Assembly (NCBI GenBank): GCA_902786345.1
Contig: CADACB010000010.1
Span: forward strand, 34,723 to 98,722
From: an uncultured Ruminococcus sp.
Lineage (GTDB): Bacteria; Bacillota; Clostridia; Oscillospirales; Acutalibacteraceae
DNA length: 64,000 nt
Reading direction: 5' to 3'
The number at the start of each line of letters is the position of its first letter. Within the stretch, counting starts at the first letter, position 1. Of the stretch, positions 16,269 to 21,083 are shown one piece after another. Below the pieces are notes generated by a model. It did not search any database, was not told where the DNA came from, and was given only the letters and a program-made list of their open reading frames with translations. A program made the translations under genes and the position numbers.

Positions 16269-18464
16269 TTAATGAATTGTCTGATTATCCGTTCTCTGAC
16301 GGCTGACAAGCTCGGAAAACAGCCCGTTTTTCGCTGTCAGTTCTTCGTAGCTTCCTTCCTCGGCAACGGCGCCGTTGTCGAGCACCAGTATTCTGTCGCA
16401 ATGGCGTATTGTCGAAAGTCTGTGCGCGATAATGATACGCGTGCAGCCCATTTTATCAAGAGAATCGCTCACCTGACGCTGCGTGATGTTGTCGAGAGCG
16501 CTGGTTGCTTCGTCAAAAATCAGAATTTTCGGTTGTGAAACAACCGCCCTCGCAATCAAGATACGCTGCTTTTGTCCGCCAGAAATTCCCCCCTGCCCTG
16601 CTGACACAAGGGTGTGCATCCCCATCGGCATAGCACGGATATCGTCGGCGATTCCCGCAATTTCAGCAGCTTTCCATGCATCGTCAAGTGTCGCCTGCGG
16701 AAATGCTATAGTAATATTTTCAAATATGCTACCCTGAAACAGCTCGCCGTTTTGCATAACCGTACCGATTTTGCCGCGCAGAGAGCTTAGGTCGAGCAAA
16801 TCCAAGCTGTGTCCGTCGTAAGCAACCTCGCCGCGTTCGGGAGTGCGCAGGCCGAGCAGCAGCTTTACCAAGGTGGATTTGCCGCAGCCTGTTTTGCCGA
16901 CAACCGCGATATATTCCTTAGGGCGTATTTTCAAAGACAGGTTTTTAAATATATATGGAGTGTTCTCGCCGTAGCGGAAGTAGATATTATTCAGCTCCAC
17001 TGCTCCGCTCAAATCTGAAACAATCCGTCGGTCGCCGTATGCTTCGGGTTCTGTCTGCATGAATATGTCAAGCATTTGCAGCATGGGCGCAATTTTTCCT
17101 ACGGACACAAACGAATCCGACAGCAACTTTATCGCACCGAGTACCGTGCCGAACGCCACCGCGAACGCGATATAGGACGATTGCCCAACGCCGTAATCCA
17201 TCGCAATGTTGTACAAAACGATACTTGAAACAAGGCTTACCGCAAGGGTGATTACACCACTGATACGTGCGAAAAGCGGCGGCGAAAAGCTGAGCCGTCT
17301 GCTTTCGGAATACTCGCCGAGCCACTTTGCGAAGAAGCGTTTTTCAGCTCCCGAGAGCTTTATCTTCTGAATTCCGTTTATCACGTTATATCTGGTTTTG
17401 GCTTCTTTGGCGGAAAGTTGCAGCTTTTTGTTGTTAATTTTTGTCTGCACAACCGCAGAGAGCACGCCGAAGCCGATGGTGATCAGCAGTATTGACAGCG
17501 TCGGCAGGCCGAGCGGCGGCGCAATCCAAAATATTTGAACGATATACAAAAGCGACGCCAGCGCGGTCAGCCCAGTTCCCGCAACGGCAGAAATCAATAG
17601 TTCGCAAAGCTCGTCAACAGTGCTCGAAAAGCCCGCAAGCTCGCCCGGACTTACTCTTTCAAAAAAGTCAGAAGGAAGCCCCAGTATCCGCATCATCAAA
17701 GCCGAATGAACCGTTAAGGAAGTTTTGCCGCGGATTCTCTTTATCAGCGAGTCAACTACCGTGCGGATTAACTGAACCGAGATCACGGTACACAGCATGA
17801 AAATACCAATAAAAAAGAGTAATATGGTATTGCCGCTTGCCACTATGTCGCCGGTAAGCACTTTTACCGTCTGCGGAATCAGCAGCCCGACGGCTGTCAT
17901 GAGCAGTACGCAAAAAGCGAGATATACCCAATCTTTTGCGCGCATACAATCCTTTATGTAGTATAGAAATTCCTTTGAAGTCAGCTTTTTATGCGGAAGC
18001 GGCTTGTAAAAACAATAGGCTTCCGTTTCAAACAACGCCGCCGTTTTGCGGTTTACCCTTACGGTACTTCCCAAATGGTTTTTAAAGCTGTAATGTGTGC
18101 CGAATTTATCGGGTAAGAGAACAACGGGCTCGCCGTTGTCTTTTCTGTGTGTAAGTAATACGCCGTAAGCATCCTTGTACCACTCACCATCCAAAAGGAC
18201 TGTACGCTTCATAACACCGTAGTACCGCAAGCTGTAGTTGAGCTGTTCGCCGCTGTCGGTGATAGAATCCGGAAACTTCACGGGCTTTAGGTGAAAATAT
18301 TTTAAAATCTCGTCAATGGCGCGTTCGGCGATAATGCTTTCGTCAAGCAATTCGTCTGCCGTTTGCTGTCCATAAACAATACCCGCTGCCTGAAGGAAGG
18401 TGTTTTCCAACAACTGTTGGTCTTGCTCCTTCCGCTCGTTTATTTGTTTTTCAAATAAATTCAT
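16269..18464 (-). CDS. ABC exporter (permease plus ATPase) with a non-peptidase N-terminal domain; NHLM-type second transporter
   Basis: 731 aa. The N-terminal domain of about 170 aa has no Cys/His C39 motifs. It has a 6-TM region, Walker A GKTGCGKST, signature ISGGQKQR and Walker B ILIFDEATSALD. AAGGAG RBS. Confidence 0.9.
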   Translation of the reverse strand: MNLFEKQINERKEQDQQLLENTFLQAAGIVYGQQTADELLDESIIAERAIDEILKYFHLKPVKFPDSITDSGEQLNYSLRYYGVMKRTVLLDGEWYKDAYGVLLTHRKDNGEPVVLLPDKFGTHYSFKNHLGSTVRVNRKTAALFETEAYCFYKPLPHKKLTSKEFLYYIKDCMRAKDWVYLAFCVLLMTAVGLLIPQTVKVLTGDIVASGNTILLFFIGIFMLCTVISVQLIRTVVDSLIKRIRGKTSLTVHSALMMRILGLPSDFFERVSPGELAGFSSTVDELCELLISAVAGTGLTALASLLYIVQIFWIAPPLGLPTLSILLITIGFGVLSAVVQTKINNKKLQLSAKEAKTRYNVINGIQKIKLSGAEKRFFAKWLGEYSESRRLSFSPPLFARISGVITLAVSLVSSIVLYNIAMDYGVGQSSYIAFAVAFGTVLGAIKLLSDSFVSVGKIAPMLQMLDIFMQTEPEAYGDRRIVSDLSGAVELNNIYFRYGENTPYIFKNLSLKIRPKEYIAVVGKTGCGKSTLVKLLLGLRTPERGEVAYDGHSLDLLDLSSLRGKIGTVMQNGELFQGSIFENITIAFPQATLDDAWKAAEIAGIADDIRAMPMGMHTLVSAGQGGISGGQKQRILIARAVVSQPKILIFDEATSALDNITQRQVSDSLDKMGCTRIIIAHRLSTIRHCDRILVLDNGAVAEEGSYEELTAKNGLFSELVSRQRTDNQTIH

Positions 18465-18475
18465 ACGCAGTCTCC

Positions 18476-20656: not shown

Positions 20657-20660
20657 AGTC

Positions 20661-21083
20661 CTAAACTCCAAACAACAGCTCATATGGGCGCAAGGATTTG
20701 ACGACCACGCTGACAGAATATTCTCCGTCCTGTGCCGATACTTCCGCATACCCGACAGGCATTTTAAAATTGTTATATTCTATACGCGTAAGCGTTTCTT
20801 CCTGTCCGTCCAGAGTGAATTTCATATCTTCTTTAAGTTGATATTTCTCATTATCCGCAAGCATCACCATTGCCTGACCGTTTGAAAGGACCGCGCTGCC
20901 CTTGGCGGTAACGTTGACCGTTCCGATAAAGCTCCAACTGAGCAGTCCTGCCAAAGCGATTAGTATCGCGGCAAGCAACAGCCAGACTACCGGCTTTGAT
21001 ACGCGCAGGTAATCGGTAAGCTGATCCGGTTCTGAAATTTTGTCAAGTGATTTTTTTCTGAATAATAAAGGTTTTCTATCCAT
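20661..21083 (-). CDS. 140-aa HlyD-like export accessory protein (mini adaptor lacking the coiled-coil hairpin)
   Basis: MDRKPLLFRKKSLDKISEPDQLTDYLRVSKPVVWLLLAAILIALAGLL resembles the N-terminus plus TM of NHLM/HlyD-family secretion proteins (from memory), followed by only about 85 aa. GAGGGTGG RBS. The stop lies 4 nt before the PCAT start. Confidence 0.65.
   Translation of the reverse strand: MDRKPLLFRKKSLDKISEPDQLTDYLRVSKPVVWLLLAAILIALAGLLSWSFIGTVNVTAKGSAVLSNGQAMVMLADNEKYQLKEDMKFTLDGQEETLTRIEYNNFKMPVGYAEVSAQDGEYSVSVVVKSLRPYELLFGV

Follow-up and report, generated by a model that had tools for sequence, protein, structure and literature searches.

A probable Nif11/NHLP-type export operon with two unlike ABC subunits and a 140-residue adaptor in a rumen Clostridia bacterium

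The stretch of DNA analysed here (the window) comprises 64,000 nucleotides (nt) from a cattle-rumen Clostridia bacterium and contains a four-gene secretion operon that encodes a 140-residue membrane protein (the mini adaptor), two ATP-binding cassette (ABC) proteins and a 714-residue protein. We read this region as the export operon of a leader-dependent secretion system of the Nif11/NHLP type ('NHLM'), in a form belonging to rumen and gut Clostridia, and put the probability of this reading at roughly 0.7. The gene order is that of the NHLM cassette, the ABC proteins are counterparts of TIGR03796 and TIGR03797, and the mini adaptor is a reduced counterpart of TIGR03794. These three NHLM families, which an earlier model-made reading of the letters alone (the sequence-only reading) had named, are the best hidden Markov model (HMM) matches of the three proteins, by a wide margin for both transporters (the next families score ~340-360 bits). 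The open reading frame (ORF) coordinates of that reading are also right, with all three ORFs on the minus strand. The 714-residue protein is likely the cargo of the exporter; its gene, just downstream of the ABC pair, had not been mentioned there. The four genes lie head to tail, and a 179-nt gap separates the second ABC gene from the last ORF:

20661..21083, minus strand: mini adaptor, 140 residues (N-terminal match to TIGR03794, AlphaFold2 model, synteny, hhalign)
18476..20656, minus strand: peptidase-containing ABC subunit, 726 residues (TIGR03796, Pfam C39, identity to LahT150)
16269..18464, minus strand: second ABC subunit, 731 residues (TIGR03797, AlphaFold2 model and Foldseek)
16090..16268, minus strand: intergenic region between the second ABC gene and the cargo gene (sequence scan, comparison with the related locus L091)
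13945..16089, minus strand: likely cargo, 714 residues (probable Nif11-type leader, Gly-Gly, Sec-like segment)

Results

The cassette and its conservation

The three-gene NHLM cassette was found in 2010 by phylogenetic profiling, together with NHLP and Nif11 precursors, and the system was predicted to cleave the leader and to export the product (Haft, Basu & Mitchell, PMC2887384). The pairing of the two ABC proteins was the top result of that profiling, and one of them was noted as lacking the peptidase domain (PMC2887384); the asymmetry of the pair is therefore already known from genome comparison. The cassette is annotated in thousands of genomes and, in the literature that we searched, is known only from that comparison: no biochemical or structural study of the NHLM ABC pair was found there, and when a characterised transporter of this kind, heterodimeric and with a peptidase, was searched for, nothing but the 2010 paper and studies of homodimers came up.

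To define the related loci, one genome per species was scanned, which yielded 147 relatives, and 80 loci were kept. They come from rumen and gut Clostridia (Ruminococcus, Lachnospiraceae, Butyrivibrio proteoclasticus, Mogibacterium, Erysipelotrichaceae and others). The C39 transporter gene directly follows the mini-adaptor gene in all loci with enough sequence (76/76), and the gene with the non-catalytic N-terminal domain comes next in 64 of 65, with gaps of 11-25 nt between the two ABC genes in most loci. In operon position, the mini adaptor thus stands where the TIGR03794 protein would be expected. The same order of adaptor, first ABC gene and second ABC gene is found in Spirosoma, Pseudanabaena, Azospirillum and Streptomyces.

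On the Clostridium estertheticum plasmid pCF016-270 (L081, positions 3238-8052), the trio, here a 'hypothetical protein' of 163 residues, then the C39 ABC protein and the second ABC subunit, is part of a two-component lanthipeptide cluster that has two LanM genes; a single peptidase-ABC transporter, distinct from the trio, is encoded nearby.

The C39-peptidase ABC subunit

The 726-residue ABC protein aligned with TIGR03796 over profile positions 1-709 of 710, with a score of 845.2 bits (E 3.6e-254) compared with 364 bits for the runner-up family. Pfam places Peptidase_C39 (PF03412) at residues 17-144 (1.6e-31), followed by ABC_membrane and ABC_tran. The TIGR03796 alignment begins at residue 16 and a GGAG lies 11-14 nt upstream of the start at 20656; this ribosome-binding site (RBS) and the alignment start fit 20656, and a longer 757-residue start (20749) was rejected.

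Residues 1-150, nt 20656-20207, minus strand: C39 domain (Pfam), followed by the transmembrane and nucleotide-binding domains
Cys28 at 20575-20573, His102 at 20353-20351 and Asp118 at 20305-20303, minus strand: catalytic residues of the C39 domain (alignment)

The Cys, His and Asp signatures that had been noticed in this gene are all present, and together with Gln22 the residues Cys28 (ECGAAS), His102 (DHFVVL) and Asp118 (NDPANG) are 99-100% conserved among 71 orthologues. Over 137 residues the domain is 69% identical to LahT150 (PDB code 6mpz), the protease domain of LahT from Lachnospiraceae bacterium C6A11, which cleaves Nif11- and NHLP-type (nitrile-hydratase-type) leaders after a double glycine in vitro (PMC6363468). 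For LahT, the isolated protease domain alone has been studied, and its substrates are lanthipeptide precursors.

The second ABC subunit and its N-terminal domain

The 731-residue protein matched TIGR03797 over profile positions 26-685 of 686 (645.9 bits, E 8e-194) and contains Pfam ABC_membrane and ABC_tran; a fragment that is 51% identical to it (P0201) is named by NCBI as a member of the TIGR03797 family. We treat both ABC proteins as a clostridial branch of TIGR03796/TIGR03797, not as certified equivalogs.

Residues 1-175, nt 18464-17940, minus strand: conserved N-terminal helix and non-catalytic C39-like domain (AlphaFold2/Foldseek), followed by the transmembrane and canonical nucleotide-binding domains

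The ~175 N-terminal residues gave no Pfam match, and no PDB sequence match at E<=10. An AlphaFold2 model of this domain, made with 17 homologues, has a predicted local distance difference test score (pLDDT) of 67, with values of 70-84 over residues 50-150. A Foldseek search with this model returned as the best PDB match the C39-like domain of HlyB (PDB code 3zua; E 5.4e-4, probability 1.00). The next matches were HlyB within the HlyB/D complex, then LahT150 and PCAT1. The sequence-only reading had described the N-terminal domain (~170 residues) as one without catalytic residues, and this holds across 62 orthologues, in which the C39 catalytic positions hold no conserved Cys or His and the sole conserved Cys of the domain lies in the last strand, in the motif CFY-P-P. 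It is predicted from the model to be a degenerate, inactive C39-like domain, related to the protease fold and not an unrelated domain, so that the earlier question of whether it keeps the catalytic residues of an active C39 fold is answered by a predicted C39-like fold from which they are absent. The helix that precedes it is conserved at W3, F4, Q7, R11 and D15.

In the Streptomyces, Spirosoma and Pseudanabaena loci (L083, L084, L087), the second subunit has 957-1001 residues, with ~250-300 extra N-terminal residues that match no Pfam domain. Just upstream, Pseudanabaena encodes a cyclic-nucleotide-binding protein.

Both nucleotide-binding domains are canonical, as had been claimed for the Walker A, Walker B, signature and H-loop motifs. 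The Walker A motifs are GASGCGKS and GKTGCGKS, the signatures LSGGQ and ISGGQ, the Walker B and D-loop segments ILILDEATSALD and ILIFDEATSALD, and the H-loop is AHRL in both proteins; about 96% of the orthologues keep these canonical motifs. A degenerate ATP site, the mark of transporters of the TmrAB / BmrCD / TAP type, was not found, both subunits having the consensus including the Walker B Glu. Because both nucleotide-binding domains are canonical, the asymmetry of the pair is confined to the N-terminal domains.

The two subunits would form a heterodimer with two competent ATP sites, one active protease and one inactive C39-like domain. That they associate physically is suggested by the synteny (64/65 loci), by the same order in other phyla and by the 2010 profiling (PMC2887384). 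A single protease is plausible, because PCAT1 binds two substrates and places only one of them for cleavage and transport (PMC6959990). Alternatively, the pair might be two separate homodimeric transporters, of which the C39 subunit would export the cargo and the second ABC protein would be another pump, for self-protection or for some other substrate. Many heterodimeric ABC exporters carry one degenerate ATP site. The complete, canonical ATPase motifs of both subunits fit this alternative, as does the homodimeric state of the characterised relatives PCAT1 and ComA (by their PDB names). We regard it as unlikely, given that the ABC genes are adjacent in all but one of the 65 loci and mostly within 11-25 nt of each other, that their pairing is kept across phyla and headed the profiling list (PMC2887384), and that the predicted C39-like fold of the second subunit makes sense in a partner of the active protease.

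The mini adaptor

The 140-residue ORF begins with FRKKSLDKISEPDQLTDYLRV, which is followed by a membrane helix. Its start at 21083, the shorter of two and the one given in the sequence-only reading, is right: the RBS GAGGGTGG fits it, and the terminator of the upstream STAS gene (21179-21148) lies ahead of it. The longer, 178-residue start (21197) was rejected, since that terminator falls inside it.

Residues 7-28, nt 21065-21000, minus strand: cytoplasmic motif LFRKKSLDKISEPDQLTDYLRV (sequence)
Residues 30-53, nt 20996-20925, minus strand: membrane helix (AlphaFold2 model)
Residues 56-130, nt 20918-20694, minus strand: extracytoplasmic β domain (AlphaFold2 model)

The AlphaFold2 model (pLDDT 76.6) comprises a disordered basic N-terminus, the membrane helix, a seven-strand β domain and a short C-terminal helix that carries the motif PYELLFGV. 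It contains no α-helical hairpin, in agreement with the earlier claim that the protein lacks the long hairpin of HlyD adaptors. Against TIGR03794, the mini adaptor matched positions 1-60 of 421 with 29.9 bits, and 48 of 49 diverse mini proteins matched the first ~60 positions of the same model (best E 6.7e-12). When hhalign was run against an alignment of full-length NHLP secretion proteins, residues 1-78 were aligned with a probability of 98% (E 7e-15). Residues 66-140 are collinear with the C-terminal barrel region of the full-length proteins (Nostoc residues ~345-472), a weak match (E 0.003), and a common terminal motif reads VVVKSLRPYELLFGV in the mini adaptor, IELRTQSPFDLVLGR in Streptomyces and VTVEERSPITFVLPI in Nostoc. 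A search of PDB sequences with the mini-adaptor profile gave chance-level matches only.

Alignment with full-length homologues, which had been put forward as a check, thus leaves the N-terminal motif and the membrane helix in place, with a weak match in the barrel. The comparison supports a mini adaptor that keeps the cytoplasmic motif and the membrane helix of the full-length adaptor; we infer that it also keeps part of the membrane-proximal barrel, and that the lipoyl domain and the hairpin that reaches TolC are gone. The earlier description of the protein as HlyD-like stands for the N-terminal ~78 residues and does not extend to the HlyD Pfam domain, which was undetectable. The models that define the HlyD family (lipoyl, hairpin and barrel) do not recognise the 140-residue protein, and 'derived from the NHLP adaptor' names it more safely than 'HlyD' does.

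Across loci with the same gene order, the lengths of the adaptors form a falling series:

Nostoc, Pseudanabaena, Spirosoma and Azospirillum: 378-482 residues (double-membrane bacteria)
Streptomyces: 270-292 residues (HlyD_3 present, no hairpin)
Clostridium estertheticum: 163 residues (no HlyD Pfam domain)
Window: 140 residues (no HlyD Pfam domain)

The 482-residue Nostoc adaptor has lipoyl and HlyD Pfam domains and a long Gln/Glu-rich central stretch, and a TolC gene is adjacent to the adaptor locus of Spirosoma. Both the Nostoc protein and the 270-residue Streptomyces adaptor match HlyD_3, HlyD_D23 or Biotin_lipoyl_2.

The sequence-only reading had left two options for the short ORF, a minimal Gram-positive version of the adaptor or a truncated or frameshifted remnant of a longer gene. 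The data favour the former, a conserved short family at a fixed place before the transporter pair. In 28 sequences that are 58-82% identical to the mini adaptor, the length is almost always 140 residues. A profile of the family, searched against 1.84 billion cluster representatives, matched 3401 of them at E<=1e-3 and 1151 at E<=1e-10; the best 150 matches are nearly all 130-190 residues long, the exceptions being ~10 entries of 80-125 residues, which are probably partial, and one repeat protein of 1846 residues. Family members are labelled 'hypothetical protein' in public records, and no Pfam model covers them. Decay of a full-length HlyD gene, or a membrane protein that has no role in export (an immunity protein, for instance), could account for the match to only 60 of 421 TIGR03794 positions and for the missing Pfam domain. 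It fits poorly with the conserved length, with the conservation of the β-domain residues G62, G111, G120, Y122 and P133, with the ORF's own RBS, with its invariant place upstream of the transporter (76/76) and with the significant N-terminal homology in 48 of 49 proteins. We consider this explanation very improbable and already largely refuted, and the truncation or pseudogene reading was rejected in view of the conserved length and the fixed synteny.

The 1846-residue protein (P0146) is of a surface type, with BspA-type leucine-rich repeats and seven GBS_Bsp-like repeats, and matches positions 85-123 of the mini-adaptor profile seven times, which hints at a small β-domain motif shared with the mini adaptor. 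Weak matches were also seen between the mini adaptor and the MAG1140 family, and between some of its relatives and MG280 (NCBIfam NF045999/NF045998, Pfam PF23067). The ABC proteins match the Mbov_0121 peptidase ABC family, and the peptidase transporter of mycoplasmas may likewise be accompanied by a small accessory protein of a related kind.

The likely cargo

The 714-residue ORF starts with a 52-residue leader (nt 16089-15934) that ends in EIPDEMLAEVTGG, with Gly51-Gly52 at 15939-15934 and hydrophobic residues at -4, -7 and -12. A local profile matches this leader to those of small Cys-rich peptides in three related loci (L012, L016 and L019; E about 1e-25). The L012 leader passes the Pfam threshold for Nif11 (27.3 vs 23.8 bits); the window leader alone scores below the Nif11 threshold (PF07862 / TIGR03798). 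Directly after the Gly-Gly comes KGFIPALLASIMVLSSASAIAPVPVSA-AE, with one basic residue (K-G), ~20 hydrophobic residues and VSA. This Sec-like segment covers residues 55-79 (nt 15927-15853), and its layout was judged by eye and with a hydropathy scan. The new N-terminus that cleavage would leave on the large cargo of the window's clade thus looks like a Sec signal peptide or a membrane anchor. The N-terminal half of the protein is coiled-coil, and aromatic W/Y/F repeats lie at the C-terminus. Searches for a function returned no Pfam or NCBIfam family and no sequence relative in the PDB. None of its 19 homologues is annotated; some have the leader, Gly-Gly and the hydrophobic segment, and others an ordinary Sec signal peptide at the same place. 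ChW repeats (PF07538) form the end of one homologue.

Small peptides with a Gly-Gly leader, often present in several copies and with 25-92 residues after cleavage, are the candidate cargoes of most of the 80 loci. The design of a leader plus hydrophobic segment occurs only in the clade nearest to the window (L001, L003, L005, L006, L008 and L011), where complete cargo ORFs encode 551-703 mature residues; that of L008 is short and lies near a contig end.

We compared positions 1-800 of L091 (and also L090) with positions 15880-16300 and 21194-21493 of the window. L091 is a close relative (83% identity in the STAS protein and 78% in the cargo), in which the STAS terminator is followed by ~30 unrelated bases, ~13 nt from the very 3' end of the second ABC gene (CAGACAATTCAT) and an intergenic region that is ~88% identical and includes both of the 30-nt palindromic units found in the window (described below). 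As the STAS terminator is joined to the last ~13 nt of the second ABC gene, the three transporter genes have been deleted in this relative. Its cargo gene has an in-frame 87-nt deletion that corresponds to leader residues 21-49 (29 codons), and the Gly-Gly has become NG; the N-terminus now reads MKSFTANEMMNTKTEKKKTKTNGKRFIPSLLASVMVLSS...VSA-AE, a plain signal peptide. Elsewhere, in L089, there is a Sec-type cargo homologue, and the transporter genes are absent from its 14-kb contig (5 kb upstream, 7 kb downstream). The joint loss in L091 is the strongest evidence here that leader and transporter would work together, and it indicates that the hydrophobic segment is able to serve as a signal for Sec.

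Proposed mechanism and points against it

In the mechanism that we propose, the active C39 domain would bind the leader and cut after Gly52, and export would be driven by ATP. The inactive C39-like domain would take the place of a second protease and, by analogy with HlyB, might hold the unfolded cargo or help in assembly. The mini adaptor would use its cytoplasmic motif and membrane helix to bind the transporter; the lipoyl domain and α-hairpin may have been lost because a single-membrane cell has no TolC-type outer channel to reach.

The size of the cargo bears on how it could leave the cell. The PCAT1 cavity of ~15,000 cubic ångströms has room for one 66-residue cargo (PMC6959990). A mature cargo of ~660 residues exceeds a cavity of this kind, so the PCAT1 mechanism cannot apply unchanged; the size therefore calls either for HlyB-like threading or for a two-step route in which removal of the leader releases a Sec substrate. 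Threading of unfolded proteins of very large size is done by transporters of the HlyB type, in which the C39-like domain binds unfolded substrate (preprint 10.1101/2025.05.27.656419).

On the two-step route, the C39 domain would only remove the Nif11 leader and so unmask a Sec-type signal, and the large protein would then leave by way of Sec. The arrangement of K-G, ~20 hydrophobic residues and VSA after the Gly-Gly is that of a Sec signal, homologues have ordinary signal peptides at the same position, in L091, which has lost its transporter genes, an in-frame deletion has left a plain signal peptide where the leader was, and the PCAT1 cavity takes only about one 66-residue cargo. Yet cutting a leader in the cytoplasm needs neither transmembrane and ATPase modules nor an adaptor, all of which are conserved in the clade; the same machinery serves small peptides that have no hydrophobic segment in related loci; and threading of very large proteins is known from HlyB-type transporters (10.1101/2025.05.27.656419). 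This route is possible, though less likely than not. Equally tentative is the boldest form of our own proposal, in which the heterodimeric exporter of a single-membrane cell, with a one-domain mini adaptor, might thread an unfolded protein of ~70 kDa. This would amount to a Gram-positive type 1 secretion with an N-terminal leader, and the composite of a Nif11 leader and a latent Sec signal or anchor might let lineages switch between routes.

Several observations weigh against assigning the region to an NHLM-type exporter with a paired transporter. All three proteins score under the curated NHLM cut-offs: the peptidase subunit is 8 bits short of the TIGR03796 equivalog cut-off (845.2 vs 853.3), the second subunit reaches 645.9 bits where TIGR03797 demands 709.4, and the 29.9 bits of the mini adaptor are far short of the 156.2 bits set for TIGR03794, so that it does not qualify on the full model. 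Pfam searches with the mini adaptor and 49 relatives gave no significant match, and none to HlyD_3, HlyD_D23 or Biotin_lipoyl_2; Foldseek with its model gave no significant match, the top entries being generic small β barrels; and the statistically significant likeness to the full-length adaptor is limited to its N-terminal half. For the second subunit, the profile-profile comparison of the N-terminal domain with the active C39 domain was not significant (E 0.45), and the pLDDT of 67 gives the model moderate confidence. To these come the cargo of ~660 residues, too large for a PCAT1-like cavity, and the canonical state of both nucleotide-binding domains, with which each subunit could act as a homodimer.

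Comparison with known systems

The window shares with the NHLM cassette (PMC2887384) its three components, their order and a leader that ends in Gly-Gly and is probably of the Nif11 type. The adaptor differs, having 140 residues and no lipoyl domain or coiled-coil hairpin, compared with ~420 residues in NHLM. The second NHLM subunit was said in 2010 to lack the peptidase domain, whereas that of the window is predicted to carry a degenerate C39-like domain. The NHLM cargo is a short modified peptide, whereas that of the window is a 714-residue protein with no modification enzymes nearby.

PCAT1 from Clostridium thermocellum (PDB codes 4ry2 and 6v9z) and ComA (PDB code 8hf4) combine, as in the window, C39, transmembrane and ATPase domains in a single-membrane cell, and PCAT1 was matched over its full length with 318 bits. 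PCAT1 recognises its cargo by the leader, as proposed for the window, but this cargo has 66 residues after cleavage and fits the cavity. Both transporters are homodimers with two active proteases, and PCAT1 has no adaptor.

In the type 1 secretion of haemolysin by HlyB and HlyD (PDB codes 3zua, 7sgr and 8dck), HlyB binds unfolded substrate with a C39-like domain that is inactive, the best structural match of the second subunit's N-terminal domain. Like the mini adaptor, HlyD consists of a short cytoplasmic N-terminus, a single membrane helix and a portion outside the cytoplasm, and the HlyB/HlyD cargo is large and unfolded; that of the window is also large. In contrast to the pair proposed for the window, HlyB is a homodimer with two inactive domains and a C-terminal secretion signal that is not cleaved, and HlyD is a long protein that docks onto TolC in cells with two membranes, whereas the mini adaptor is short.

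ComB/BlpB-like accessory proteins are ~450 residues long and HlyD-like, with long coiled coils. The ComAB / BlpAB / RtgAB systems of streptococci resemble the window in having a Gram-positive peptidase transporter and one accessory membrane protein, but have a single ABC gene and no second subunit (PMC7018657).

What goes beyond the documented systems is the mini-adaptor family, the C39-like nature of the second N-terminal domain, the large cargo with its composite signal and the deletion variant; these are new. If the heterodimer is real, it would combine active C39 and inactive C39-like appendages in one machine, and would be a natural system in which to ask what a second protease domain does. 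With the ~140-residue family, a 'hypothetical protein' that is common in gut and rumen Clostridia acquires a name and a role that can be tested, and the family indicates what is kept of an HlyD-type adaptor in cells that lack an outer membrane. The exchange of secretion signals and export routes can be approached directly through the large cargo and its leader-swapped relative.

Operon borders, regulation and expression

Additional features at the borders of the operon are as follows:

21148..21179, minus strand: terminator hairpin of the upstream STAS (anti-sigma antagonist) gene, a 14-bp stem followed by a T-run
21084..21147, minus strand: candidate promoter and 5' region of the operon (sequence reading)
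13878..13919, minus strand: probable terminator 3' of the cargo gene, an imperfect hairpin rich in G+C with a T-rich tail behind it (sequence reading)
13223..13876, plus strand: convergent TetR-family regulator with TetR_N and TetR_C_8 (Pfam)

The STAS terminator marks the upstream border of the export operon. Between it and the mini-adaptor gene, a perfect -10 element, TATAAT, was read at 21126-21121, and the RBS GAGGGTGG lies just 5' of the ATG at 21083; because the -35 element is weak, this promoter is missing from the list of the consensus scan. The candidate terminator of the cargo gene is likewise absent from that scan's list.

The intergenic region at 16090-16268 contains two adjacent 30-nt units (16207-16236 and 16237-16266) with palindromic TGTCTA/TAGACA cores, then a promoter-like site (16197-16169) and a GGAGG RBS. 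A TetR_C_8 regulator also adjoins the cargo homologues in L089 and L090. The TetR protein of the window is a candidate regulator of the cargo gene, and the two palindromic units may form a candidate operator-repressor pair with it.

The G+C content is 46-48% over 14-20 kb, compared with 35-41% on both flanks, and the flanking genes are housekeeping genes (GdpP, RNase J, RNase H, cysteine desulfurase with NifU, and IspH-S1). With its raised G+C content and such neighbours, the operon looks like an inserted island, which suggests that it was acquired horizontally. We looked near the operon for peptide-modifying enzymes and found none among these neighbours.

Expression and occurrence were assessed over positions 13500-21700. 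With a depth of 1-9, contigs from bovine rumen metatranscriptomes cover parts of all four genes and of the gap that precedes the cargo gene, which is weak evidence of operon expression. At least about half of the sampled words of this region are contained in 20 DNA metagenomes, mostly from bovine gut.

The STAS gene itself (21194-21493, minus strand) is divergent from a gene on the plus strand (21661-23625) that encodes a membrane SpoIIE-type phosphatase fused to an anti-sigma-kinase-like HATPase domain. The two genes make up a partner-switching module directly upstream of the operon, with the terminator in between.

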